From Escherichia coli (lineage in GTDB: Bacteria; Pseudomonadota; Gammaproteobacteria; Enterobacterales; Enterobacteriaceae): DNA of 64,000 bases. Both the position numbers and the translations under genes were made by a program. A model generated the notes under the pieces. The model had not been told where the DNA came from. It did no database searches and saw only the letters and a program-made list of their open reading frames with translations. The stretch lies in the NCBI RefSeq assembly GCF_030013205.1, contig NZ_CP122648.1; one strand, 5' to 3'. The first letter of the stretch is position 1, and each line of letters opens with the position of its first letter. Of this stretch, positions 4,832 through 54,300 are shown piece by piece.

Positions 4832-5049
4832 AAACTCTCCACTTTGGGGATCTGTAATATCAGTCGCATATCTTTCCTGCCATACAATATAACTGACAAG
4901 CGATATTTTGTTAGTGATCCCATGATTTCGTAAAAAGTGTAAATGAAAGGATGCCCTAAAAGCATCCTTAGCGAGCAGAGAGTCAGCGGAAATAGCTGAT
5001 TTAAGAATCATCCTGGGCTGAAGATAACATGCAAGCCTAAAGGATGGAG

Positions 5050-5874
5050 TTATCGCATTATGCCCATGAAGCCATGTACGCCCATATACACACCAACTAA
5101 GCCAATCAACAGACTGGAAAAATAGGGGGCGCGTTTAGCGAGAGTGTTAAATCCGCTCCAGCGTTTTGCGACCTGCTGAACGCTGATTGCTGCGCCAACG
5201 CCTACGGTGACAAGCGTTAACGCCAGGCCAATGCTGAAACTGACGACCAGTGTTGCGCCCAGTGTCAGGGCTTTCAACTGAATGCATATCAACAGCACGG
5301 TAATTGCTGCCGGGCAGGGGATAAGGCCACCGGTTAAGCCAAATAGCAAAATTTGCCAGTTGGTGACCTCTCTACCATCAAAGCGTCGTTTAATGTCATT
5401 GGCATGGGCTCGTGCATGGGCATCCTGATACTCGCCATGTTCGTGATGGTGATGATGTCCATGGTCGTGGTGATCTTCGTGATCGTGGTGATGATGCTCA
5501 TGATCATGCTCGTGCATATTCTCCAGCCAGTTGCGTTCGCCGCGCCAGGTACGCCAGAACATCCAGAACGCGGTGCCAATAATGATCACTGCGGAAATCA
5601 ACTGGAGCCACGGTTCTGCTGATTGAGCAGTAAAGCGCTTGCTGATCACCATCCCGCCAAAGGCAATCAACCAGACCACTGCGGTATGCGAAATGGTTGC
5701 TGCCAGTCCGAGCATCACCGCCTGTTTAATGGTGCCTTTGATGGCGATGATAAACGCCGCCATCATCGTTTTTGAGTGCCCTGGTTCCAGGCCATGAAGC
5801 GCACCAAGTAAGATGGCGCTGGGGATGAAGAACCAGGCGTTTCCTTGCTGAAGAAGAGTGGTAAATTCGGTCAT
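5050..5874 (-). CDS. rcnA: Nickel/cobalt efflux permease
   Basis: 274 aa membrane protein with His-rich loop (HEHDHEHHHHDHEDHHDHGHHHHHEH). Confidence 0.9.
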   Translation of the reverse strand: MTEFTTLLQQGNAWFFIPSAILLGALHGLEPGHSKTMMAAFIIAIKGTIKQAVMLGLAATISHTAVVWLIAFGGMVISKRFTAQSAEPWLQLISAVIIIGTAFWMFWRTWRGERNWLENMHEHDHEHHHHDHEDHHDHGHHHHHEHGEYQDAHARAHANDIKRRFDGREVTNWQILLFGLTGGLIPCPAAITVLLICIQLKALTLGATLVVSFSIGLALTLVTVGVGAAISVQQVAKRWSGFNTLAKRAPYFSSLLIGLVGVYMGVHGFMGIMR

Positions 5875-5911
5875 GATAATAATTCTTAGTATTAATTCGG
5901 CAATCTTATTC

Positions 5912-5946
5912 TACTCCCCCCCAGTACCTGATACTACCCCCCAGTA
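5912..5946. promoter_or_regulatory. Two tandem RcnR operator sites in rcnA-rcnR divergent intergenic region
   Basis: TACT-C7-AGTA at 5912-5926 and TACT-A-C6-AGTA at 5932-5946; matches the published TACT-G6-N-AGTA RcnR site read on the other strand. Confidence 0.7.
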
Positions 5947-5994
5947 GATTAATAGTGCTATGATTTTTCATATTCTTGTTAACCAGGTGTTGCC

Positions 5995-6267
5995 ATGTCT
6001 CATACCATCCGTGATAAACAGAAACTGAAAGCGCGTGCCAGTAAGATTCAGGGCCAGGTCGTGGCGCTCAAGAAAATGCTCGACGAGCCGCACGAATGCG
6101 CTGCAGTTTTACAACAGATTGCTGCTATCCGTGGCGCGGTAAACGGTCTGATGCGGGAAGTGATTAAAGGTCATCTGACGGAACACATCGTTCACCAGGG
6201 GGATGAGCTAAAACGTGAAGAAGATCTGGATGTCGTTCTGAAGGTGCTGGATTCTTATATCAAATAA
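5995..6267 (+). CDS. rcnR: Ni(II)/Co(II)-responsive transcriptional repressor (CsoR/RcnR family)
   Basis: 90 aa; sequence recognised as RcnR; divergent from rcnA. Confidence 0.9.
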
Positions 6268-6359
6268 TTTATTAACGCGATTGTAAAACTGCGGTTTTTA
6301 CTCGTTTACAACGCGTGCGCTGGACATTACCATCCTCCTCTGCGATTTATCATCGCAAT

Positions 6360-6437
6360 CAAACGACTCGGGGTGCCCTTCTGCGTGAAGGCTGAGAAAT
6401 ACCCGTATCACCTGATCTGGATAATGCCAGCGTAGGG
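6360..6437 (+). repeat. Left copy of 78-bp direct repeat: TPP-riboswitch aptamer segment without downstream expression platform (att-like)
   Basis: Identical base-for-base to 15250-15327; sequence diverges immediately on both sides. Confidence 0.85.
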
Positions 6438-6520
6438 GGCCAAAATAGTCTTGAAAATTATGTGGTTGTATCTCTTTTTGACCATAAATCATGCTGTTAA
6501 GGTACAAAAAGGGGTCGTTT

Positions 6521-7828
6521 ATGAGGTCAAGAACTCTCCCATACACATTTCAGCGAAACGGTAATTACTATCTACAAATCCGGCTTTCGGATGGTCGGAT
6601 ATACAAAAAATCACTTTTTACTGACAGTTATCGCGAAGCATCGGCGTTGATGATTGGCCTTACTCCGCACATTCCTTTCGTTAAATCACTCGCTACTCCG
6701 TTGCCGCAATTTAATAAGTTTGTTTCAAACTTGATCGCTTCGTCACGTAACGTAATGATTCCGTTGCCACTCCCTCAGCAATTGAACAATATTTCTAAAG
6801 AAGTTTTGCAGCTTCAACCACCAGCCAAACCGGAAAAGGTGCTAACACTTGCTGATGCGTGGGCTATGTACAAGGAGGAAAGAGGTCGAAATTGGACAAA
6901 ATCGATCTCAATGGCAAATGAGCGTTATATGGAGGTATTGCTTGTTGTCTTGGGAAAAGAAACAGACGTAACGGCAATCACCAAACAAGATATTAAGCGA
7001 GTAATGGAAACTGTCGAAAACTTACCAAAGCGTGTAGTGCAACCGTATAGGTCAATGACTATTCAGCAACTAATCGAATGTGATGATGTGCTGCCAGAGG
7101 ATTTAGTTGGTGCTGAGGCTGTACATAAGCACCTTAAAATCTACAAATCGTTATTCAAAACATTTCTGACTGAAAACAAAGATATTCTATCTAAGTCTCC
7201 GACTGATGGAATAGTAGCGGCACCATCCAAAGCTAGGTTTGGTGCATACAGTGCAGCAGAAATGAAAAAATTTGTAGGATGGGCACTAAAGCAGCCTGAT
7301 GGATGGCAGAAGTGGATCACTTTGTTGTTGGCGTACACAGGAGCCAGAAGAGGTGAGATTGCTAAACTGGAGAAGTCGCAGATCAAATTTGATGAAGATA
7401 GCCAGCGGCACTATCTTCTGATCGCGGAAAGAAGGCTGGGTAAAACTGAGAATGCTACAAGACAGGTAGTGATTCATCCCAAACTGATTGAGTGGGGGTT
7501 TCTGGATTTTGTTAACCGCCAATGGAAAGAGAAAATCTTTTCGGAAGTCTCAGGTCGAAATATGTCAAAGATAGGTAAAGTTCTTTCAGATGTTCGTGAT
7601 CAGCTTGATATTCCTTATCTTGATGATTATGGGCAGCGGCGCTTGGTGCATAGTTTCCGGCATACTATGATTTCTACTTGTTTAGCTGGTTGGGTGAGTA
7701 ATTTGGCGCATCTGCAACAGGTGGTAGGTCATGAGAAAAGCGGTTTAGGGATTACCAGACGCTATTTGCACTCTTTTCCTTTACGTTCAATTTGTTACGT
7801 GATTGATGGTTTGGACTGGTTAAATTGA
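6521..7828 (+). CDS. Tyrosine site-specific integrase (phage/P4-like integrase family)
   Basis: C-terminal catalytic motifs TGARRGE, HSFRHT (HxxR) and RRYLH (Tyr nucleophile); ATG 6521 with AGGGG RBS preferred over 6491. Confidence 0.85.
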   Translation: MRSRTLPYTFQRNGNYYLQIRLSDGRIYKKSLFTDSYREASALMIGLTPHIPFVKSLATPLPQFNKFVSNLIASSRNVMIPLPLPQQLNNISKEVLQLQPPAKPEKVLTLADAWAMYKEERGRNWTKSISMANERYMEVLLVVLGKETDVTAITKQDIKRVMETVENLPKRVVQPYRSMTIQQLIECDDVLPEDLVGAEAVHKHLKIYKSLFKTFLTENKDILSKSPTDGIVAAPSKARFGAYSAAEMKKFVGWALKQPDGWQKWITLLLAYTGARRGEIAKLEKSQIKFDEDSQRHYLLIAERRLGKTENATRQVVIHPKLIEWGFLDFVNRQWKEKIFSEVSGRNMSKIGKVLSDVRDQLDIPYLDDYGQRRLVHSFRHTMISTCLAGWVSNLAHLQQVVGHEKSGLGITRRYLHSFPLRSICYVIDGLDWLN

Positions 7829-7869
7829 TGTGAGCCTCGTGAGAAAGGGAATAAATAGAGAAAATCAAG

Positions 7870-7897
7870 TTGTTACCTCATTGGCAGGGGATATAAT
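7870..7897 (+). promoter_or_regulatory. Candidate sigma70 promoter for nuclease gene
   Basis: TTGTTA-16 bp-TATAAT, ~30 bp upstream of ATG 7928; followed by near-palindrome TGACCATATTGTCA (possible operator). Confidence 0.45.
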
Positions 7898-7927
7898 GAC
7901 CATATTGTCATCTTGAGGAACAAAAGT

Positions 7928-9499
7928 ATGGTTGCTCGTTCTAACCTTGTAAATTTAGATGCACTGATTAAGCGTGCTGATTTAGGTTTAAAGATCCAAG
8001 ATAACTCTTCATTTGAAACGCTAAACAGTATTCCTGCAAGAGAATTGAAATCAGGAAGTGGAATTGCTGCGCTTCTGAGAAAACCAGATTTCCAGCGTGA
8101 AACAAATCATTGGGGGCCTGAGCAGGTTGTATCGCTTCTCGAATGCTACATCAATGGTGATTTGATACCTTCCGTTATTCTTTGGCGGTCTTCAACCCAT
8201 CTTTTTGTGATCGATGGTGGTCATCGTTTAAGTGCGTTACGTGCTTGGGTTGAAGATGATTATGGCGACGGTCATATATCCCATCAACTTTTTGGGCATG
8301 ATATTCCTCGTGAACAACGCCGCGCTGCAGATAGAACGAGAAAGCTTGTGAAGGAGAGGGTCGGTAGCTGGGAATATTATCAGAAGTTGCTTGCCGATGA
8401 TGCTTCATTGACCGAGGAACAGCAGAGAAGAATCAGCGTATTAACATCTCGTGGAATCTCAGTCCAATGGGTAGTGGGTGATGTAGATAAGGCAGAAACT
8501 TCATTTTTTAACATCAATATGAAGGGAACTCCTCTTGATGCTATCGAAGAGATGCTTCTAAAAAATCGCAAGAAAAGTATTCCGATAGCAACCCGAGCAA
8601 TTATTCGTGCCGGTAGAGGTCATCGCTATTGGTCGGGGTTTGATCAGAGCATTGCCCAGCAACTTGAAGATAAATCTGCAAAGCTGCATCGTTTGCTGTT
8701 CGAACCTGAAGTTGATCGCCCTATTAAAACTCTTGATCTTCCATTAGGCGGTTCTAGGGGGGTCAGGACAGCGATCCAAGTTTTGAAAGATTTCTTACTG
8801 ATCACTGATTGCAACCAGAATGGTGTTTTGAAAAAAATCGAAGCCTACCCTGATGATGCGTCGGGTGCTGATACGTTAAGAATCCTTTCCAAAGCCACAT
8901 CATTAAGCAATAGAATTACAGGCAATGGCGATGGTAGCTTGGGGCTTCATCCAGCGATTTATTTTTATGGTCCGACTGGAATCCACTCAACGCCAATGTT
9001 TCTAGGAACTGTGCTACTGGTGGCAAAACAACTCTCTAACAATAATGGTCAATTCTTTAAAGACTTCACAACAATCAGATCTAGGCTTGAGAGAATAATG
9101 ATCGAATTTAAGGACTTGATCGCAATGATAGTACAAAAACCAGGTAGTAATGTCCGAGTGGCTCGCTACTGTGATTTTTTAAATGCGGTGATCAAATCAC
9201 TCAAGCAGGGAGAGAATATTGATGAGAGTAAGCTTATCGAGCTGGCCGAATTGGAGGGGAGAATACTCTCTGGAGATTTTAAGAGAACATCAGCAAAAAT
9301 CAGCGATGAACAAAAAAGTAAGGTGTTCATTGACGTGGCTCTGCGCAACGCTTTGAAATGTCCGATTTGCCAAGGTTACCTTGATACTGAAAAGTCAGTT
9401 TCTTATGATCATATCGTACGTGTCCGTGAGGGAGGAGATGGTAATTCTGACAATGTACAGTTGACACACCCTTACTGTAACCAGTCAGTGAAGTGTTAA
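7928..9499 (+). CDS. ParB-like (DUF262/DGQHR-type) N-terminal domain fused to C-terminal HNH endonuclease; candidate defence/type IV restriction-like nuclease
   Basis: N-terminal motifs PDFQRETNHW and VIDGGHRLSAL; C-terminal CPICQ…YDHIVRV…NSDNVQLTHPYCN (HNH with Cys ligands); GAGGAA RBS before ATG 7928. Confidence 0.6.
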   Translation: MVARSNLVNLDALIKRADLGLKIQDNSSFETLNSIPARELKSGSGIAALLRKPDFQRETNHWGPEQVVSLLECYINGDLIPSVILWRSSTHLFVIDGGHRLSALRAWVEDDYGDGHISHQLFGHDIPREQRRAADRTRKLVKERVGSWEYYQKLLADDASLTEEQQRRISVLTSRGISVQWVVGDVDKAETSFFNINMKGTPLDAIEEMLLKNRKKSIPIATRAIIRAGRGHRYWSGFDQSIAQQLEDKSAKLHRLLFEPEVDRPIKTLDLPLGGSRGVRTAIQVLKDFLLITDCNQNGVLKKIEAYPDDASGADTLRILSKATSLSNRITGNGDGSLGLHPAIYFYGPTGIHSTPMFLGTVLLVAKQLSNNNGQFFKDFTTIRSRLERIMIEFKDLIAMIVQKPGSNVRVARYCDFLNAVIKSLKQGENIDESKLIELAELEGRILSGDFKRTSAKISDEQKSKVFIDVALRNALKCPICQGYLDTEKSVSYDHIVRVREGGDGNSDNVQLTHPYCNQSVKC

Positions 9500-9887
9500 A
9501 ATCACGTTTCACTTTTCGTTGTCATTTGTATCGAACGTTTTTGAGAAAGGGCAGGATTGCGAGCGAGTTACCAGCGTAAACAGATAAATACTGTTTTCGT
9601 AAGCCCACTGTCGCCGCTTTCCGCTCTGCAATTTTTGCTTGTCGGGGGGCTAATTGTGGCTTTGCTTGCCATAACATTAAAAGTCAGTAATATACTGAAA
9701 ATTAATACAATACTTTTCATATATCCCATTGAATATTCAGTTCATTGCCAAATAGCAAGCGGAGCACTCTCTCTTTAACGTTGTAGTAACTTAGTTGAAC
9801 AATTTTATAATATAATTTGTCTAAGTTGGTTGATGTATCAAAGCCTTTTTCTGAAGAATGAATTGGCGTGATTACTCACGCCAGATT

Positions 9888-10235
9888 TTAAATTTCAGAA
9901 CATAGGCTAAGCGTATAGACAGCAGTTTGCCCATCATTGTTAGTCGGTCTCATAACGAAAACAGGCTGACTCCCATTATCAATGTATGTGACTGCAACCC
10001 CTCCATCAGGTGTGGCATACATTTTTGCGATGCTTTTTTGACCTATAAAATCAAGTCTCCAAGTCTTACCACCAAGATGTATTGTCATTTTTTTATCTTG
10101 TATATCAAAAGTTGAATCTACAGAAACTTTCTGACTTCCCGAGTCAATATGACCTTCCTGTATTGCTTTACAGGAAAAGGTTGTGGCGTGGCCCATCACT
10201 GGAATTAACAAAGCGGCAAATACTAGTTTTTTCAT
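9888..10235 (-). CDS. Small secreted/periplasmic hypothetical protein (115 aa)
   Basis: Internal ATG with GGGAG RBS; signal peptide MKKLVFAALLIPVMGHA; no family recognised. Confidence 0.5.
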   Translation of the reverse strand: MKKLVFAALLIPVMGHATTFSCKAIQEGHIDSGSQKVSVDSTFDIQDKKMTIHLGGKTWRLDFIGQKSIAKMYATPDGGVAVTYIDNGSQPVFVMRPTNNDGQTAVYTLSLCSEI

Positions 10236-10345
10236 TTGTCTCCCTTGATGTGTCAAATGGATGGTGATGCTAATAATACATGATTGATTCAAAATGTCAC
10301 GATTAGTGCGTGGTTAATTGGTGCGTCAAATTGCATCTTTGTGCC

Positions 10346-10810
10346 ATGCGAAAGAATCTGAGATACCTTTTTGGACAACGAGTAAAAGAGTTCCGTATAG
10401 CTATTGGCTTAAGCCAAGAGGCCTTTGCAGATCGGTGTGGTTTTGCTCGTAGTTATATGAGTCGAATTGAGCGTGGTTGCTCTAATGCATCTCTTGATGC
10501 AATTGAGGTTCTGGCTGACGCTTTGCGTATTGAGCCTTGGCAGTTACTAGCTTCTGATTCAAGGAAAACTGATGATCAGGAGGTACTTGTTCCTTATGCT
10601 GCAGATGGGTCGTGTTTTCATCCAGGATTGGCAAGTACTCGCGATGGTTCGTTTAGAGTAGGGGAAAAATCAGCCCAGAAACGTTTCAGTTCGTTCAATG
10701 ACGCTCTCGAATACCTTCGTGGAATGGAAACCGCGAAGTGGCGTAGGCCTAATGCTAGTGGTAATTGGGGAATTGTATCTGCGGTTAAATGGGATCGACT
10801 GAATCAATAA
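10346..10810 (+). CDS. XRE-family (Cro/CI-type) HTH transcriptional regulator with uncharacterised C-terminal domain
   Basis: HTH segment LSQEAFADRCGFARSYMSRIERG; start codon uncertain (GTG 10310 or ATG 10346). Confidence 0.55.
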   Translation: MRKNLRYLFGQRVKEFRIAIGLSQEAFADRCGFARSYMSRIERGCSNASLDAIEVLADALRIEPWQLLASDSRKTDDQEVLVPYAADGSCFHPGLASTRDGSFRVGEKSAQKRFSSFNDALEYLRGMETAKWRRPNASGNWGIVSAVKWDRLNQ

Positions 10811-10976
10811 GATATCAGTAATTTTCGGGCCACTCCACAAGGCAATAAGTGGCTTAGTGGTGATTATCGAAGGGGAATACAAGCGAGCACCTAGGCACCA
10901 TTGCAAGAACCGCTCAACGCTGAGATCAGCAAGCCCCGATTTCTGCCGACCGTCCCTGTCAAATATCAAGGAGGCA

Positions 10977-11516
10977 TTACGCCTCCTCTTCTTCCTTCTT
11001 AATTCGCTGTACCGTCGAAGGAGCAACATTAAAGATCTCGGCGGTTTTACGCACTGACACGCCATCAGAAAGGGCTTTCTTTATACCTTCTCGATCCACT
11101 GCCTTACCTTTACCACGCTTTCTAGGATTGACGGCTTGCGCTTCTCGTTTACGTTCTAACATCAGTTCACGTTCACACGTTGCCACTGCCGACAACATAG
11201 TAAGCATCATTTTTCCCATCGCGCTTGTAATGTCTGCAATGATCCCTTCTTTGTGAAAGCGAACAATTACACCACGATTATTAAGTTGTTCCACTAAGGC
11301 AAGAATGTCTAAGGTGTTACGCCCTAAACGATCAAGAGAGTGGACGTGTAAGGTGTCGCCTTCTCTCAGATAGGCTAAACACGCTTGTAAGCCTGGGCGG
11401 TTAGTGTCTTTACCAGACAGCTTATCTTCAAAGACTTTGTCGAGAGTTAGTCCTGCAAGCTGGCGATCAGTATTTTGATCTACAGTGCTCACACGCTTAT
11501 AGCCGATATTGCTCAT
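10977..11516 (-). CDS. Serine recombinase (resolvase/DNA invertase family)
   Basis: N-terminus MSNIGYKRVSTVDQNTDRQ (catalytic Ser motif), C-terminal HTH; ATG 11516 with AAGGGGA RBS. Confidence 0.8.
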   Translation of the reverse strand: MSNIGYKRVSTVDQNTDRQLAGLTLDKVFEDKLSGKDTNRPGLQACLAYLREGDTLHVHSLDRLGRNTLDILALVEQLNNRGVIVRFHKEGIIADITSAMGKMMLTMLSAVATCERELMLERKREAQAVNPRKRGKGKAVDREGIKKALSDGVSVRKTAEIFNVAPSTVQRIKKEEEEA

Positions 11517-11564
11517 AAAATCCCCTTGATGTATCGATTTGGCACCACTCCAATGCAAATGAGT

Positions 11565-11660
11565 GTGTTGTATTCATTTGGTCTGTTTCAAGCCTTATGG
11601 ATACGGAATATTACACGATTTAGCTGTATTCATTTGGTATGCCTAATGGATACGCAGGGG
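11565..11660. promoter_or_regulatory. res-like recombinase binding sites upstream of the serine recombinase gene
   Basis: Two similar subsites TGTATTCATTTGGT…ATGGATACG with internal imperfect dyad symmetry, directly upstream of recombinase start. Confidence 0.4.
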
Positions 11661-11769
11661 GATAGATTAAATGGTGTTCTGTTTATACAGGTTTATTTGT
11701 TAGATCAACAAGTTGGCATTTCTAAACAGATGTTTGAACGTTGCCAAATGCCTTGACAACACAAGAAAA

Positions 11770-12720
11770 TGGCTTGCTATGAACGCATTACACGAAATAA
11801 GGCTATAAAAACAAAATAAATTTTAAAATTTGCACAAAAACGAGAAAACTCGTTCGACAAATAATAGATTGGTTTTTAATCGACAATTTCTGACAATTTC
11901 TGATGGTGCTCTGTAAACCGCATTACACAAGGCTTTGCGAAAGTGATGTAAAAGTGAAGAAAGTTAACATTGCACTTTGAAGCCATTTTTCATTGGATTT
12001 TTTAGTAGGGAATTACACAGGGAATAGAGAGCATTATTCTATGATTTACACAGGGAATATAGGGGATTATGGCACACACATAGAAAGGCATTACACAGAG
12101 TGAGTGCTATGTGATGATTGGTAGTAACGGTAGGTCACTGTGAGCTACCCCCCACAGAATTCTGTTACCCCTATCAAGTCTAACAGGGGTTTATAAAGAA
12201 TAATAAACCGATGATACCCCTATCAATATTGATACCCCTATTAGCTTTGATATGACTACCCCTATCAAAACTGATACCCGATAAGAATAAGTTAATAAGA
12301 ATAATTAAATAATATTCTTTATATCTATATATATGATCTTTTTGCCTTCCGGCGTTAGCTTCACTCTCTGGCAAGCAGCCTTACTCCGCTATCTTTGGGC
12401 TTCGTGGCTGGCCCGTTCCGCTCACACCGAAAGCAAAGCGTTACTCTTCTTCGTGTAACTATCGTTGGCGGTAACGCCACACGAAGAAATACTATTGCGC
12501 TGTGCGCAGTAAGAGTAATCACCTAACCAATCACCTGATTGCTTACGTGTTAACTCTCTCTAACTCTTAATTACCCTCCTACATTTAATAACTCTATTAT
12601 TCTCTGTAGTTGTGTAATTACTCGAAGAGAGAGCGGCTAAAGCTCAATTACACTCTGCTTTCCTCGTGTAATTTCACTAAGCCTCAATACAATTTCACTT
12701 CCTACATTCTGTAGTCGTGT
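11770..12720. repeat. Iteron-like repeat cluster in 1.9 kb ORF-free AT-rich region (putative origin or regulatory hub)
   Basis: Five direct copies of (C)ATTACACAG at ~11777-12100, four copies of TACCCCTATCAA at ~12163-12270, reverse-orientation GTGTAAT copies at ~12451-12715. Confidence 0.5.
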
Positions 12721-13503
12721 AATAGTTTTCGGTGGGGAAAAGCCAGAGGCGACACCGAAAGAAAATTCTGATCTTATTAATCTTATCTATCTTAGTTAAT
12801 CTTCTTACTTACTTTATCTACTTTATTATTAATAATAGCTTTATAAGCTCTCTGTGTAGCTCTCTGACGCAAGAAACAGCATTCAGGAAGGGAATCACCT
12901 TAGAAAAGTGTTCTTTGCGTCATAATGTGTTTTATGAAGGATTCAGAGGTGTTTCATAACACAAGGTATAGAGGATATTTTAGTTAATTAAAAATAAGGG
13001 GGCTAAATGCTTCTCTAACAGCATTAAGCAGGGTAGAGAATGGAAATGCATTGCCTACGTATATATAAACTCACTACAAGGCTTTACAGAGCGTTTTATA
13101 AAGTAACTAATCTAAGAACTCTCTGTTTTATATCTATCATCATCTTTCCATCATCTAACAAATACAAAATAAGCCCCTTAAATAAGCCTCTGGCGAGCTA
13201 AACAGCCATTACATAAGGGAATGTATTTCTTTTATCAAAACTTCGTTAGAACGCGTTTTAGAGCGTTTTATACAATAAGGAAGAATAGGACCGTCCGCAA
13301 GAGCACGAATTGCTAAGAAAGAATGTAAACGCATGAAAAATATCAGATTTTTTATGAAAATATATTGACAAATGTTTCTTTATATGTAATAATAGGTATT
13401 AGAGAGACAGAAAAACATTCTTCTCTAAATAATCAAAATCAATGCACTTTGAAGCCGTCAGGCTTGCAAGGTGTTTTTCTTTTAACTGAATAAGGAGTTT
13501 TTT

Positions 13504-13692
13504 ATGAAATGGTTTACACCGGAACACGTCGTAGAGGCATTTAAAAAAGGTGAGCTAACACGACATCAAGTAGTAATGAATCGTAATATGGCAAGGAGTC
13601 GAGGTTATCCAGAGCGTGAAAAATGTTTCGATGCAGCACTAAAAATTATTGATAAATTAAGAAAAAATGAAAAAGGATCTGAAACAGAGTAA
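13504..13692 (+). CDS. Hypothetical small protein (62 aa)
   Basis: AAGGAG RBS upstream of ATG; no family recognised. Confidence 0.35.
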   Translation: MKWFTPEHVVEAFKKGELTRHQVVMNRNMARSRGYPEREKCFDAALKIIDKLRKNEKGSETE

Positions 13693-13711
13693 AGAAGAGA
13701 AGGAGAAAACT

Positions 13712-13882
13712 ATGAGCGAAACTACAGAAAAGAAAAGACAACCACGCACTTGCTTTCATATTCCTGATGAAGTATTTCAGGTGTTGTTTAAAGAAGCCAG
13801 AAGTAAACGTATCACTGTTACAGATTACATTCTTGATATGTTGAAAAGAGAGGCTGAAACACTCTCAAATAAAAGCAAGTGA
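13712..13882 (+). CDS. Small ribbon-helix-helix (CopG/Arc-like) DNA-binding protein
   Basis: 56 aa; AAGGAGAAAAC RBS; N-terminal RTCFHIPDEVFQVLFKEA…ITVTDYILDML pattern typical of RHH. Confidence 0.45.
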   Translation: MSETTEKKRQPRTCFHIPDEVFQVLFKEARSKRITVTDYILDMLKREAETLSNKSK

Positions 13883-13936
13883 TTTTTATCACCATAGTAG
13901 CGCCGTAGAGCGTGATTACATCAAGGAGCTTTTTTA

Positions 13937-14599
13937 ATGATTAAACATACAAAACCTTTCTTAGGAATAGATTATGACTTACTAGCAATCACTTCCCTAG
14001 TGATTAACGGCAAAACAAAAGAAGTAAAACTACATCATAAGATCATTTATTCTTATTTGTTAAGTTTATCTGGCACATATCAAAAGGTAACACCATCTTT
14101 GAAAGGTATTGGTGAGCGGTTAGGAGTAGGTACAGATCAGACGGTACGCCGTCATATCAAAGATCTTGTTTCTTTTGGATGGTTGAAGATTGAGGAAAGG
14201 GCAGGTAGCACAAATGCTTATATTGTCCTTCCTTATGAACAAGAAGCCCAGACACAACAAGAAGCTACCGTTAAAGCTGTTCAGGAACAGCTTCCCCCTA
14301 CGGAAGATAATAAAGAGTTTTCTTTTGATGTTCTTGATGATTGGGATGCGCCTTTACCTTGGGAAATGGAAGAAACGCCATCTGATGAAAAGGTAGCTAA
14401 TGATAATGAGGAGGATGTGTTAGAGAATTTTGCCTCTCTTATCATCCAGGAGAAACACACAAGAACAGGAGGGGCATCATTTATAGAATTTGCAACATCG
14501 TTAGCCTGTAAGCACAGGATAAAGCTACCAAATGGTATTGAGGCATATTTTGCTAAGAAACATCCCAAAGTATATGAAGACTTTGATATTCCATTTTAA
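13937..14599 (+). CDS. HTH (winged-helix-like) protein with acidic linker; possible iteron-binding replication or regulatory protein
   Basis: 220 aa; AAGGAG RBS; HTH-like segment LKGIGERLGVGTDQTVRRHIKDLVSFGWL; sits beside iteron region. Confidence 0.45.
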   Translation: MIKHTKPFLGIDYDLLAITSLVINGKTKEVKLHHKIIYSYLLSLSGTYQKVTPSLKGIGERLGVGTDQTVRRHIKDLVSFGWLKIEERAGSTNAYIVLPYEQEAQTQQEATVKAVQEQLPPTEDNKEFSFDVLDDWDAPLPWEMEETPSDEKVANDNEEDVLENFASLIIQEKHTRTGGASFIEFATSLACKHRIKLPNGIEAYFAKKHPKVYEDFDIPF

Positions 14600-14794
14600 T
14601 AAGGAGGGTTATGATTCAATATTTAGTAAAAAATAAAGTAGAATTCATCTATTCCACTCTCTAAAAATCTATCTGTGTAATATAAAATGAAAACATTATG
14701 GTATTAGCTATGTATTGGTTATTGTTCTTTCTGGCCTTAGAAACATATGCAAGTAAGTCTGGAAAACGAAAGTAATATATTGATGATTTGTTTG

Positions 14795-15052
14795 TTATAA
14801 CTTCGTGGTGTCAAGTCCAGCAGTTTTGAGTCGCTCGGTAAGATTTCTCATTTTGCTGAACTCTGTACCAAAGCTGGCTTTAAGTCCTACACCTTCGCAA
14901 AACTCTTTTGCCGTGACGTTTTTCAGATGGTCAACATATTTGGTCATCTGGAGGTGCATTTCCATCGTTTGGCTATTTCGTGATGCGCTGCTAATGGCTT
15001 GCTTAATGTTCTCGTAGATCTGGGTTCTGTCATTGTTTATCCCACCTATCAA
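14795..15052 (-). CDS. Hypothetical protein (weak call; no in-frame ATG at ORF start)
   Basis: 85-aa ORF begins at TTG; first in-frame ATG would give 56 aa; no family recognised. Confidence 0.25.
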   Translation of the reverse strand: MIGGINNDRTQIYENIKQAISSASRNSQTMEMHLQMTKYVDHLKNVTAKEFCEGVGLKASFGTEFSKMRNLTERLKTAGLDTTKL

Positions 15053-15249
15053 ATTTAGAAAAATAATATTAATTAGCTAATTAATATAATCAATGGTTTT
15101 CACCATCTGAATGATAGCCGTTAATTGTTTCTTTTTCATTCCTTCTATGGGGTACAAAATGGGGTACACAGAGAAGAAGCAATTAATGGAGGCGAGCTTG
15201 CATCTGCAAGCCACTTCCCCTAAGCTGGCACAAAATATAGAGATTCAAC

Positions 15250-15327
15250 CAAACGACTCGGGGTGCCCTTCTGCGTGAAGGCTGAGAAATACCCGTATCA
15301 CCTGATCTGGATAATGCCAGCGTAGGG
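15250..15327 (+). repeat. Right copy of 78-bp direct repeat (part of intact thiM riboswitch)
   Basis: Identical to 6360-6437. Confidence 0.85.
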
Positions 15328-15379
15328 AAGTCACGGACCACCAGGTCATTGCTTCTTCACGTTATGGCAGGAGCAAACT
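15250..15379 (+). promoter_or_regulatory. thiM TPP (THI-box) riboswitch: aptamer plus expression platform
   Basis: Sequence CGACUCGGGGUGCCCUUCUGCGUGAAGGCUGAGAAAUACCCGUAUCACCUGAUCUGGAUAAUGCCAGCGUAGGGAAGUC… recognised as thiM riboswitch; directly precedes thiM start. Confidence 0.9.
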
Positions 15380-16168
15380 ATGCAAGTCGACCTGCTGAGT
15401 TCCGCGCAATCTGCGCACGCGTTACACCTTTTTCACCAACATTCCCCTCTTGTGCATTGCATGACCAATGATGTGGTGCAAACTTTTACTGCCAATACCT
15501 TACTGGCGCTCGGTGCATCGCCAGCGATGGTTATCGAAACCGAAGAAGCCAGTCAGTTTGCGGCTATCGCCAGTGCGTTGCTGATTAACGTTGGCACACT
15601 GACGCAGCCACGCGCACAGGCGATGCGTGCCGCCGTTGAACAGGCAAAACGCTCTCAAACACCCTGGACGCTTGATCCAGTAGCGGTTGGTGCACTCGAC
15701 TATCGCCGCCGTTTTTGTCTGGAACTTCTGTCTCATAAGCCAACCGCCATACGTGGTAATGCTTCGGAAATCATGGCATTAGCTGGCATTGCTAATGGCG
15801 GACGGGGAGTGGATACCACTGACGCCGCAGCTAATGCGATACCCGCTGCACAAACACTGGCACGGGAAACTGGCGCAATCGTCGTGGTCACAGGCGAGGT
15901 GGATTATGTTACCGATGGCCATTGCACCGTTGGCATTCACGGTGGCGATCCGCTAATGACCAAAGTGGTAGGAACTGGCTGTGCATTATCGGCGGTTGTC
16001 GCTGCCTGTTGTGCGCTACCAGGCGATATGCTGGAAAATGTCGCATCTGCCTGTCACTGGATGAAACAAGCCGGAGAACGCGCAGTCGCCAGTAGCGAGG
16101 GGCCAGGCAGTTTTGTTCCACATTTCCTTGATGCGCTCTGGCAATTGACGCAGGAGGTGCAAGCGTGA
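15380..16168 (+). CDS. thiM: Hydroxyethylthiazole kinase
   Basis: 262 aa, recognised ThiM sequence; riboswitch upstream. Confidence 0.95.
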
Positions 16169-16965
16169 AACGAATTAACGCTCTGACGATTGCCGGTACT
16201 GATCCGAGTGGTGGTGCGGGGATTCAGGCCGATCTTAAAACCTTCTCGGCACTTGGCGCTTATGGTTGCTCAGTTATTACTGCACTGGTGGCGCAAAATA
16301 CCCGTGGTGTACAGTCGGTGTATCGCATTGAGCCTGATTTTGTCGCCGCCCAGCTCGATTCGGTGTTCAGCGATGTGCGAATCGACACCACTAAAATCGG
16401 TATGTTGGCGGAAACCGATATTGTTGAAGCGGTGGCAGAACGGTTGCAACGTTATCAGATCCAAAACGTGGTACTCGACACCGTTATGCTGGCAAAAAGC
16501 GGCGACCCGCTGCTTTCACCTTCGGCGGTTGCTACGCTGCGCAGTCGATTATTGCCACAGGTTTCATTAATAACGCCAAACTTGCCCGAAGCTGCTGCCT
16601 TGCTCGACGCGCCACACGCGCGCACCGAACAGGAAATGCTGGAACAAGGGCGATCGCTGTTGGCGATGGGCTGTGGCGCAGTGCTAATGAAAGGTGGTCA
16701 TCTGGATGATGAGCAAAGCCCTGACTGGCTGTTTACTCGTGAGGGGGAACAACGATTTACTGCACCGCGCATTATGACCCAAAACACCCACGGCACTGGT
16801 TGTACGCTCTCTGCGGCGTTGGCTGCACTACGCCCGCGCCATACAAACTGGGCTGACACCGTACAGGAGGCAAAAAGCTGGCTTTCATCGGCGTTAGCCC
16901 AGGCCGACACGCTGGAAGTTGGTCACGGTATTGGTCCGGTTCACCACTTCCACGCCTGGTGGTGA
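16165..16965 (+). CDS. thiD: Hydroxymethylpyrimidine/phosphomethylpyrimidine kinase
   Basis: 266 aa; GTG start overlapping thiM stop (translational coupling). Confidence 0.95.
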
Positions 16966-51311: not shown

Positions 51312-54300
51312 TTAGTTAATCGCGAAATAACTGCTATTCACCAGCAAATCCAGCGGTTGGGCATCGGCAATCACATCGCCATAAATCAGATCGACGCCGA
51401 TGCCAGAAAGCGTATCCATCACCAGGGGTAAAACTACTGGCCCGGCGATGGTCTTCATCCCGAGCCGCTGAGCGTGCCCCTGAATGATCGTAATCAGCAT
51501 CTCATCCATCAAATTTCCCTGCACGTTGGCGCATAACTCACCATCAAGTAGCAGGTAATCTGCCATATTCGCTTTCAGCGAGTTGAAGATTTGCAGATCG
51601 CGGCCCACCTGACTGAATACGATCCGACATCCCGCCAGCCGCAGTTTTTGCACGCTTTCTGCGTGATCTAAAATCGCGTCTGCCGGAATAATCAGATGTA
51701 ATAACCGTGGTGGTAGAGGGCTATTTTCCAGCTGCTCAATTAGTTCATTCACCAGCGTGGCGCTACTCAAACCGGCAACGGAAAGGGGGAGGGCGATACT
51801 TAAGCCTTTACTGGCAATCGCTTTTGCGGCCTGCTGGAAAAAATCGTGGAATACCCGTCGGTCAAGAGCATGGCTAAGTGCCGGATCGCTGAAACTACGA
51901 CGAAATGTTTGTTCATCAATAATCTCGCCTTCGCAACTCCAGAGCTTAAGTGAAATCAGCCACAAATTACGCGCTTCCGGGATCCGCGGCGAAGCGACAC
52001 CGTGGGCGATCATCATCAACTGATTCTCTTTAATCATCCGCCACTGTTCATCAAGCGATATCGCCGCCCGTTCGCTATGTGCGGCAGCTTGCTGCGGTTC
52101 GTAAACCGTCACCCGGCCCCGTCCACCATTTTTGGAGGCATAACAGGCGATATCAGCCTGTGACATCACTTCAGCCGCCTGATGATTGTTGTCATCAATT
52201 AAGGTAATCCCGGCACTGGCACCTACCCGATGTACACGTCCTTCCCAGATAAAGTGATAGTCATTCACGGCGCTGATAATGCGTGTAGCGATAAAACGCG
52301 CACTTTCGACATTACAATCTGGCAGCAGCAGACCAAATTCATCGCCACCGAGTCGCGCCAGCACGTCGCTGGAGCGCAGCATACTCAGCATCAACGACGC
52401 CAGTTCGCGCAGCAAAGCGTCGCCAGCGGCGTGCCCGGCGCTGTCATTCACCGCTTTAAAGCGATCAAGATCGATAAACACCAGTGCATGTCGCTGATGT
52501 GTACTGTTTACCGTTTGCAGCAGGATGCGTAGTTGCTTCTCAAAACTGGCGCGATTGGCGAGATGCGTCAGTGCATCATGGGAGGCGCTGTAGCTCAGCT
52601 GGCGCAGCATTTTGCGTGATTCGGTGACGTCCTGAATCACCAGAACCGAGCCTATATTGCTGCCGTCCAGAGTACTTAACGGCGTAATACTGTAATGCAC
52701 GTCGTAGCTGCCGCCGCTCCGACAGTGCAACACCACATCTTGTTCAATCGCGGAACGTGAGGTGTCGGCACTGTAAATGTTCTCCATTAATGGTCCGTTG
52801 TCGCCAAAAGTAATATGCAACACCGTCAGGAGCGGAACACCTAATGCTTCTTCCTGCGTCCAGCCGCTCATCTTCTCCGCCACCGGATTCATAAAGGTAA
52901 TTTTCATCGCCATATCAATACAGACCACGGCTTCGCCGATGGAATCCAGCGTAATGTGCAGGCGCTCTTTTTCCTGAAACAATGCCTCGTTAAGCTGTTT
53001 CACTTCGGTCATATCCATATTAATGCCGAGCAGGCGTTCGACTTCGCCTTCTTTATTCAGTACCCGGTTAGCGAGGGCGCGGATATGGCGAATGCCGTGT
53101 TTCACGGTAATGCGAAATTCCAGTTTAAAGGGAGAGCGTGATTGCAATGAATCGCGAATCACTTTTTCGGCGTGCTGGCGATCTTCCGGCAGCACGCACT
53201 CGTACCACACCTGCCAGTTCGGTTTGATATGCGGAGGAATTTCATACAGCTCGAACATCCGCTTATCCCAGCTAAAAATATTCGGCTTTAGCTCCCACTC
53301 CCAGATGCCAATCCCGCCCGCTTCGTTAGCCAGCGTGATGCGCTCCATCAGTTGCTGGTTCACCTGTTCGGTGCGTTTTAGCTCGTTAATGTCTTCAATC
53401 TGAGCGATAAAATAGAGCGGCGTACCATCGGTGTGGCGCACCAGTGAGACGGCAAGCAACGCCCAGACAACATCGCCATTGCGGTTGTAGTAGCGTTTTT
53501 CCATTGAATAGGTGTTTATTTCACCGCTGATCAGCTTTTCAACCTGTTGCAGATCTTTATTGAGATCCTCCGGCCAGGTCAGTTGCTGAAAGGTGAGTCC
53601 GCGCAGTTCTTCCTGACTGTAACCGAGAAACTGGCAGAGTGCTTTGTTGGATTGCAGCCATTGTCCCTCGGTGCCCACTAATGCCATGCCGATGGCGGAA
53701 TATTCCATGGCATTACGAAAACGGGTTTCGCTTTCGGAAATGTGTTTGCGTTCCGCACGAAAGGCATACATCACCATGGTCATGATGTTGGCGGGCAGCA
53801 GGATCAGCAAAAACGGTAGCCACGGCATATGGCTCATCAGATATGTACGCGGCGTAGCAAGCAGGGAGGGATCTGCGGCCATCATCAGCGACACCATCAT
53901 CACCGTGGTAAGGAAGATCAAAAAGGCTTCCATTCGTGGCAGGCGCACGGCGCTCCACATCAACAGCACAATAATGAAAGTAAAAGGCCACGGCAGATAC
54001 AGCATCGAAAGCCAGCTTAACGTCAGTGTGATGGCTAACGTGAGCAGCGACTCAAAAAGCAACCGTGGGTTGCGATGGCGCAGCAGATAGTGTGGTTTAA
54101 ATAACAATCCCAGCGGCACTAGTGCCAGTGCGCCGATGGATTCTGAAAGTACCCATATCAAAAATGCCCTGAGAGGATCGTCTCCGGGCGTCAGCAGGAC
54201 AACCAGAACACCCCCCAACAGAGGCGGAACAATGGCGCTGCCGAGTGCCAGACGCAGCCAGTCAGCCAGATTTTGCAATGGGTTATACCACGGCAGCAAT

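Follow-up and report, generated by a model that had tools for sequence, protein, structure and literature searches.

A Tn3-like resolvase-res cassette on a small integrative island at thiM of Escherichia coli, with a probable role in multimer resolution

Resolution systems of the Tn3 type follow a common rule, in which the res site occupies about 120 bp upstream of the resolvase gene and contains three dyad subsites, box III lying by the start codon and box I at the far end; the spacing of sites I and II is usually five helical turns, and the promoter of the gene overlaps the accessory sites (PMC12217951). Strands are exchanged at the central 2 bp of site I, and the synaptosome limits the reaction to direct repeats on one molecule (PMC12217951). 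The resolvase of the integrative island SGI1 was shown experimentally to remove tandem multimers of that island (PMC12217951), and stand-alone modules of the ParA-MRS and CinH-RS2 type keep their replicon monomeric (PMC5698047). Structural details, the roles of the R-interface residues, and the length relations among the Tn3 subsites have been described, as has site II of the Sin system, which is built of direct-repeat half-sites (PMC9943657). Here, we analyzed a 64-kb stretch of DNA (hereafter the window), in which a serine recombinase gene is preceded by a res-like region between the genes rcnR and thiM. The two probably form a self-contained Tn3-like resolution cassette of ~0.7 kb, carried by an integrative island of 8.9 kb and resolving multimers of that island.

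The recombinase gene is on the minus strand, and a program-made list of open reading frames (ORFs) opened it at a TTG (10977-11558). We placed the start at the ATG at 11516 instead, because the PGAP annotation of the identical sequence in strain K_EC180, an AAGGGG ribosome-binding site, and the alignment of homologues agree on it; this corrects the TTG at 11558 and gives a protein of 179 aa (MSNIGYKRVSTVDQ...). A purine-rich block was found at the position of the ribosome-binding site in all homologues of the seven-locus alignment described below. The serine recombinase with a catalytic serine that had been recognized from the letters alone was borne out, with Pfam matches to Resolvase (PF00239, 5.9e-34) and to the helix-turn-helix (HTH) family HTH_7 (PF02796, 9e-5). 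A sequence search of the PDB returned gamma-delta resolvase (4e-28), Gin (2e-27), Tn3 resolvase (2e-27), and Sin (4e-17). The protein shows 38.8% identity to gamma-delta resolvase and retains the equivalents of Y6, R8, S10, Q14, Q19, D36, S39, R45, D67, R68, R71, E118, R119, E124, and R125 of that enzyme. A catalytic domain with Ser10 and the Arg/Asp/Glu set, followed by an HTH, places it among the small serine recombinases of the resolvase/invertase superfamily. In comparisons with three E. coli relatives, the synonymous divergence (dS) of the gene was 0.18 to 0.31, and the ratio of nonsynonymous to synonymous divergence (dN/dS) was 0.04 to 0.09; the gene is under purifying selection. The recombinase is not a component of any defence system catalogued in PADLOC.

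The res-like region is 125 bp in total and begins 13 bp from the ATG. Outward from the start codon, the order is the ribosome-binding site, site III, a 1-bp gap, site II, a 19-bp linker, and site I, which is the subsite farthest from the gene (109 bp from the ATG) and has its central AT at 11639-11640. The sequence-only reading had pointed to two similar dyad subsites of ~35 bp; both dyads were confirmed and correspond to sites I and II, whereas a third, site III, had been missed. The centers of sites I and II are 52.5 bp apart (11639.5 to 11587), or about five helical turns, with no gaps between them in any of the seven aligned loci, and the centers of sites II and III are 38.5 bp apart. The region thus lies directly upstream of the gene and has three dyads with unequal spacers, the third of them only probable, with site I distal to the gene, site III at the start codon, and the promoter over accessory sites II and III, as in a Tn3-like tripartite res. 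Only two copies of the 13-mer TGTATTCATTTGG exist in the 64 kb, and both belong to these two subsites, I and II. When the window was scanned for inverted half-site pairs by means of a position weight matrix (PWM), the three subsites and one weak match at 52884, 41 kb away, were found; mononucleotide shuffles of the window gave a mean of 1.9 dyad matches of that weak kind, and the scan, whose matrix was trained on the same subsites, tests for further copies and not for significance. Site III has a strong gene-proximal half-site, TGTATCGATTTGG, and its distal half overlaps the -10 element; as a binding site, it is probable. A shorter, 25-bp Tn3-like parse of site III was rejected, as no second half-site was found at that spacing and the intervening bases differ among loci.

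Seven loci were aligned, namely, the window, NC101, and the metagenomic contigs L092, L093, L095, L096, and L097. The recombinases are 97% (NC101), 81 to 83% (L092 and L093), and 65 to 68% (L095-L097) identical to that of the window, with the layout and spacing recurring in relatives down to 64% protein identity, and the res region aligns without gaps in all seven, such that the three dyads are equally spaced throughout. Past the outer edge of site I, the sequence is unrelated in the metagenomic loci L092-L097. In the dyad register, 67% of the symmetric positions pair, compared with 25 to 34% when the register is slid by one to three columns; by subsite, the values are 72% for site I, 69% for site II, and 59% for site III. 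Seven pairs are altered on both sides, all of them in sites I (four) and II (three), with none in site III. At the center of site I, six loci have AT and one has AC, a sequence compatible with cutting at these 2 bp. Between the window and NC101, the 125-bp res region differs at ~8 positions (hand count), several-fold slower than synonymous sites, at which the recombinase gene has diverged by 0.28. Among the E. coli copies, site I is the best conserved subsite, and the site I of the window is the same as in its relatives except for the last base.

The half-sites fall into classes that differ among the loci: [TC]GTAT[CT]CAT in the window and NC101, TGT[AG]G[CT][CG]AT in L092 and L093, [CT]T[TC]ATTCAA in L095 and L097, and TGTGTTCA in L096. 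Half-sites at different positions of a locus were more similar (0.73) than those of different loci (0.61), a value that was never attained in 5000 permutations of the labels. The class follows the first residues of the predicted recognition helix, which are AP, ST, or GK/GR before STVQRIK. In a sibling island, a 62%-identical "type 2" protein has STQ in this helix, and its motif is GTAGTGAT.

The predicted promoter of the recombinase gene lies across the accessory sites. In NC101, it was called as a sigma-70-type promoter, TTGAAA-18-TATACT, with 10 of 12 matches and with the -10 element in the distal half of site III, and its columns are invariant or nearly so in the seven-locus alignment. Because binding at sites II and III would cover this promoter, the recombinase gene is probably self-repressed through these sites. 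At the other end of the gene, a G+C-rich hairpin over the stop codon belongs to the conserved left end of the cassette and is invariant in copies with unrelated sequence further left. The coordinates of these and of the surrounding features are given in Table 1.

Table 1 Positions of the recombinase, its res region, and other features of the island in the window
Feature	Position	Strand	Details
Small serine recombinase (resolvase-type), 179 aa	10977..11516	minus	N-terminal catalytic domain with Ser10, C-terminal HTH
Ribosome-binding site AAGGGG	11522..11527	minus	Read from sequence; 5 nt before ATG 11516
G+C-rich terminator-like hairpin over stop codon	10969..10987		Terminator-like call
res site I, presumed crossover site	11625..11654		30-bp dyad (14 + AT + 14), PWM dyad 19.1 + 18.6 bits
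res site II	11569..11605		37-bp dyad (13+11+13), TGTATTCATTTGG...CCTTATGGATACG, PWM dyad 19.1 + 16.8 bits
res site III (probable)	11530..11567		38-bp dyad (13+12+13), PWM dyad 16.6 + 12.0 bits
Predicted recombinase promoter	11562..11591	minus	-35 TTGAAA 11586-11591 in site II spacer, 18-nt gap, -10 11562-11567
Left 78-bp direct repeat (att core)	6360..6437	+	Exact repeat; thiM thiamine pyrophosphate (TPP) riboswitch aptamer, Rfam RF00059 at 6359-6454
Right 78-bp direct repeat, before thiM	15250..15327	+	Rfam RF00059 at 15249-15345; TPP riboswitch annotated in K_EC180
Tyrosine integrase	6521..7828	+	PHROG 1 integrase 1.6e-26; PGAP tyrosine-type recombinase/integrase
Rep-like winged-HTH protein	13937..14599	+	PHROG 270/428/391 "replication initiation protein", 1e-10 to 1e-9
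Four TACCCCTATCAA copies, iteron-like	12163..12268		Repeat search; inside gene-free ~2-kb stretch beginning right after site I

Because small serine recombinases also include the DNA invertases of the Hin/Gin/Pin type, we considered whether the enzyme flips the adjacent repeat-rich stretch of 2 kb or another segment. The family names would suit such a function, since the best PHROG match of the recombinase is phrog_125, "DNA invertase" (5e-56), many of its relatives carry the database name "DNA invertase Pin-like", and Gin scored about equally with gamma-delta resolvase in the PDB search. Invertases use two simple inverted-repeat sites and a Fis-bound enhancer and have no accessory subsites. 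The window recombinase has accessory subsites, and no second dyad resembling site I was found in the island, in the 64-kb window, or in the complete NC101 element. Of 5426 complete E. coli genomes, 155 have a 36-mer that spans site I, and these are the same 155 that carry the gene (a match covering at least 80% of query 11250-11800, that is, the 5' end of the gene, res, and adjacent DNA); the 36-mer was single in 150 of them, including the source genome (K_EC180), and double in five. Moreover, all 142 matches covering at least 80% of positions 10977-13950 were colinear on one strand, with no second orientation. With neither a partner site nor an inverted copy, DNA inversion was rejected; it is effectively excluded as far as sequence can tell, and we regard it as very improbable. 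The earlier judgment that inversion was the less likely alternative therefore stands.

The relatives of the cassette bear on a further alternative, namely, that it is a relic of a Tn3-family transposon, a tnpR-res unit left after the loss of tnpA. A protein search of genome contigs found two near-identical copies and otherwise generic serine recombinases of at most 60% identity; one relative from Enterobacter, P0010, abuts an ABC-transporter gene and lacks the upstream region. Outside the E. coli islands, the nearest relatives (55 to 56% identity) are encoded by enterobacterial plasmids of 2 to 6 kb that have a repeated dyad motif of their own upstream of the gene, and others by Acinetobacter plasmids. 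The layout is that of tnpR-res, and some plasmid homologues at ~47% identity are annotated as tnpR. However, there is no transposase gene or remnant beside the cassette in the window, NC101, PSJ-22, E15, L092-L097, or L098, and the closest relatives are on small plasmids and small contigs and do not adjoin tnpA. As no tnpA was found beside the cassette in any context read, this origin was rejected, and we consider it scarcely credible. The classic res-tnpR arrangement for multimer resolution that the sequence-only reading had seen here is thus upheld in its layout, which the comparative evidence also fits, but "tnpR" is a misnomer, because no context read has a transposase or transposon ends beside the cassette.

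Among the plasmids, we also noted circles of ~2 kb from E. coli and Salmonella with no annotated gene other than that of a serine recombinase of 56% identity; these include pDETEC86 (L008, 1985 bp), NZ_AP027492.1, and NZ_CP130129.1, and they contain repeated TGAGTAACCC motifs. Three small plasmids (L008, L009, and L011) had no match in Rfam, including to RNA I/II-type RNAs.

The cassette is carried by an integrative island. The window is E. coli chromosome, and positions 10800-12200 are 100% identical to strain K_EC180 and to many genomes of porcine enterotoxigenic E. coli. The island is ~8.9 kb long, has ~40% G+C compared with more than 50% in its flanks, and lies between rcnR and thiM. Two copies of its 78-bp direct repeat were found in ~276 of 5426 complete E. 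coli genomes; no other similarity of the island to the remainder of the window was found. After the integrase gene, the island encodes a GmrSD-type nuclease (to 9499), a hypothetical protein, an XRE/C-protein-like regulator (10346-10810), and the recombinase (minus strand); beyond the recombinase, no gene is annotated over ~2 kb (11660-13503), and then come two tiny ORFs, the Rep-like gene, and a small HTH-like gene. The Rep-like module adjoins the recombinase in related elements too.

A Rep-like gene, iteron-like repeats, an integrase, and 78-bp att repeats together provide a context for a replicating form, and the stretch with the iteron-like repeats is a possible origin; the island probably replicates when excised. 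These features favor, only indirectly, the episomal phase that had been suggested from the recombinase and its sites, and no circular or tandem junction was found. We propose that the cassette is a resolution system for island multimers because its layout matches the Tn3-type rule and SGI1 offers a precedent (PMC12217951). Also in its favor are the single res per element, the relatives on small plasmids, and the lack of tandem copies: of the 5426 E. coli genomes, ~276 have a thiM island, and none had a tandem-junction match covering at least 80% of the query. Resolvase dimers would bind the three subsites, and two directly repeated res on one supercoiled molecule would synapse via accessory sites II and III. 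Such paired res would arise when the excised, Rep-replicated circle dimerizes or when integration of a dimer leaves a tandem array; strand exchange, presumably at the central AT of site I, would then restore single copies. A single integrated copy would have no partner site, and nothing would happen. Tandem arrays in the chromosome, like those of SGI1, are an equally plausible natural substrate.

Several observations weigh against this proposal. No junction of an excised circle or tandem array (right end, 78-bp repeat, and left end) was found in IMG/VR or in the JGI metagenomes; this search, like that of the E. coli genomes, is uninformative for transient circles. Relatives are almost always chromosomal, and the lack of the cassette in most related elements indicates that it is dispensable. 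The R-interface residues R2, R32, K54, and E56 of gamma-delta resolvase are replaced by S2, K27, Y49, and R51, and the subsite lengths of 30, 37, and 38 bp depart from the Tn3 pattern, in which site III is the shortest. Site III is also the weakest dyad, with an invariant distal half (TATACTCATTTGC) that shows no symmetric covariation and doubles as the -10 element. Finally, the -10 element of the window is CACACT, whereas all six other aligned loci have TATACT. The promoter scan missed the window copy because of this altered -10 element, and the change suggests lowered expression of the window copy.

The last of these points could also mean that the cassette, although genuine in origin, is a silent or decaying passenger here, expressed weakly or not at all and without a present function. 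The altered -10 element and the missing promoter call would fit, as would the lack of the cassette from most related elements, with 383 bp of unrelated DNA in its place in O26-type elements. On the other hand, the ORF is intact with a dN/dS of only 0.04 to 0.09, all six half-sites are intact, site I has kept the sequence of its relatives up to the last base, and the sibling thiM island retains a different, intact recombinase at the same position. A silent passenger is therefore unlikely in our view, although it is the least improbable of the rival explanations, and resolution of island multimers remains the preferred reading.

The boundaries of the cassette were examined by comparison of copies. 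The recombinase and res form a compact unit of ~0.7 kb, with a left boundary 20 to 80 bp past the stop codon and a right boundary at site I. In ~12-kb elements inserted at tRNA-Gly and tRNA-Thr, the unit again adjoins the same gene-free stretch of 2 to 3 kb, the tiny ORFs, and the Rep-like gene. Approximately 370 genomes match only from window positions 11644-11647 rightwards. In the O26-type elements, the unrelated 383 bp stand in place of the gene and res, running from just 3' of the stop codon to 4 to 9 bp from the center of site I, and ~59 bp just 3' of the stop codon are retained without the gene.

The sibling island, L098 of E. coli WP2-W18-ESBL-08, is inserted at the same thiM site (4896-12250, corresponding to 6521-15040 of the window). 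It has an HNH nuclease in the slot of the GmrSD-type nuclease and the intact 62%-identical type 2 recombinase at the position of the window enzyme, and the first codons of the type 2 gene, its res, and the next ~190 bp have no detectable similarity to the window. On this comparison, the nuclease and the recombinase specificity are two swappable slots on a common island backbone. An IncF plasmid also carries the type 2 unit, within an embedded copy of the module.

These boundaries raise the possibility that crossover at site I, in addition to multimer resolution or in its place, leads to the joining or exchange of modules among related elements or small plasmids; the cassette would then have come into elements, or been lost from them, through recombination at this site. 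The homology between elements with and without the cassette begins 4 to 9 bp from the center of site I, similarity to the more distant loci stops at the outer edge of this site, and cointegrates can form under special circumstances (PMC12217951). However, the cassette-less elements have no recognizable full site I (~7 of 13 matches to one half-site, hand count), and no half-site lies at the other boundary of the cassette. Only a single class of presence/absence polymorphism was compared, so the coincidence could be due to chance, and the boundary of the type 2 cassette is ~190 bp beyond its res. We regard module exchange as improbable, more so than a silent passenger but less so than inversion or a transposon relic.

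A broader and tentative interpretation would extend multimer resolution to the whole family of elements. The cassette might be an adaptation belonging to a family of small integrative elements of E. coli that has yet to be described (9-12 kb, at thiM, tRNA-Gly, or tRNA-Thr, many with their own major capsid protein and all with a shared gene-free stretch of 2 to 3 kb), in which it keeps the genomes, once excised and replicated by Rep, in monomeric form for packaging or for integration in single copy. Two or more orthogonal types of specificity (type 1, that of the window, and type 2, with 62% identity and an unrelated res at the same position) would keep coresident relatives unfused, and site I would serve as a point of module exchange. 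We consider this possible but less likely by far than resolution of island multimers as such.

The capsid-encoding elements of ~12 kb deserve a separate description. They are inserted at tRNA-Gly (glyU) and tRNA-Thr (thrW), as in L005 (NC101, 6438-16552) and L007 (18445-23701) and also L002, L003, L004, and L006. Their products include a 342-aa major capsid protein, whose relatives in phages are all remote (~25% identity), a 612-aa protein matching a "tape measure" PHROG, a 237-aa protein resembling baseplate, tail-fibre, or endolysin proteins, and a tyrosine integrase. Neither a terminase nor a portal is annotated. These elements resemble a family of the phage-satellite type, and we know of no match to them in gene content among P4-like elements, PICI, cf-PICI, and PLE. 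A literature search found no description of an island at the thiM riboswitch or of these capsid-encoding relatives.

Other observations concern the thiM island itself. Its insertion duplicates 78 bp of the aptamer, such that the full riboswitch stays before thiM and a second copy precedes the integrase gene. The XRE-family protein matched the "Control_protein" models of PADLOC (5e-17); it is C-protein-like and may control the neighboring nuclease gene. The stretch at 11660-13503 has no ORF longer than 75 aa, yet it is 80 to 95% conserved in ~730 E. coli genomes, and its counterparts in relatives are 2 to 3 kb long; it also holds many copies of ATTACACAG(G) in both orientations. It could be an origin with an iteron field, a packaging region, or a long noncoding RNA, and Rfam searches over 6000-16000 found only the two TPP riboswitches. 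Just past site I, at 11678-11730, is an imperfect 24-nt inverted repeat (71% complementary, 5-nt gap), fully conserved whether or not an element has the cassette. A perfect TTGACA follows at 11754-11759; the repeat may be a site of regulation or binding where the gene-free stretch begins.

The cassette adds a further well-defined resolvase/res pair of a known sort, with a clear three-subsite map. Its natural specificity variants, with AP, ST, or GK/GR at the start of the helix and different half-sites, could be used as orthogonal tools for recombination, or studied as a small data set for how DNA specificity evolves in resolvases. It also supports the view, recently demonstrated for SGI1, that integrative islands control their copy number or multimer state by Tn3-like resolution systems. 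We see greater interest in the family of host elements and its gene-free stretch of 2 to 3 kb than in the cassette itself.

Among the known systems, SGI1, with the resolvase gene S027 and its restored res, is the closest parallel, being likewise a tyrosine-integrase island that is able to replicate when excised and has a small serine resolvase. In both, res precedes the gene and has three subsites, with box III adjoining the start codon, box I distal, and the promoter over the accessory sites (PMC12217951), and the centers of sites I and II are 51 bp apart in SGI1 and 52.5 bp in the window. The subsites differ in length (28, 30, and 25 bp with gaps of 22 and 2 bp in SGI1, against 30, 37, and 38 bp with gaps of 19 and 1 bp), as does the central dinucleotide of site I (AC in SGI1 and AT in the window). 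SGI1 is mobilized by conjugation, whereas the window island is small, bears a Rep-like gene, and is related to capsid-encoding elements. The activity of the SGI1 system was shown experimentally, whereas the window cassette is known from sequence alone and is likened to it by layout.

Tn3 and gamma-delta (Tn1000) share with the window the order of the protein domains, the catalytic residues, the three dyads, and a gene-distal crossover site with a central AT. The linker between sites I and II is 22 bp in Tn3 and 19 bp in the window, and the Tn3 subsites follow a pattern in which III is the shortest, I is 3 bp longer, and II is 9 bp longer (PMC9943657), whereas site III of the window is as long as site II. 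The transposons also have a transposase gene and transposon ends; the cassette has neither, and its half-site sequence is unrelated. The tnpA gene and terminal repeats, the pattern of subsite lengths, and the R-interface residues that mark the Tn3/gamma-delta subgroup are thus all missing from the cassette, and the cassette is predicted to function as a Tn3-type resolvase system but is outside this subgroup.

The remaining systems are more distant. ParA-MRS of RK2/RP4 and CinH-RS2 of Acinetobacter plasmids resemble the window in being a stand-alone resolvase with res on a replicon that is not a transposon (PMC5698047); they are plasmid-borne, whereas the window cassette is in an integrated island, and the likeness is one of description and not of sequence. 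Systems of the Sin/beta type have only two subsites, namely, site I and an accessory site built of direct-repeat half-sites, along with a gap bound by an architectural protein (HU/IHF); in the window, there are three dyads and all half-sites are inverted, and Sin was a far weaker match to the recombinase than gamma-delta resolvase (4e-17 compared with 4e-28). The Hin, Gin, Cin, and Pin invertases belong to the same superfamily and are of the same size as the window recombinase, but they act on two inverted sites, whereas the window has one composite site with accessory subsites and no partner.

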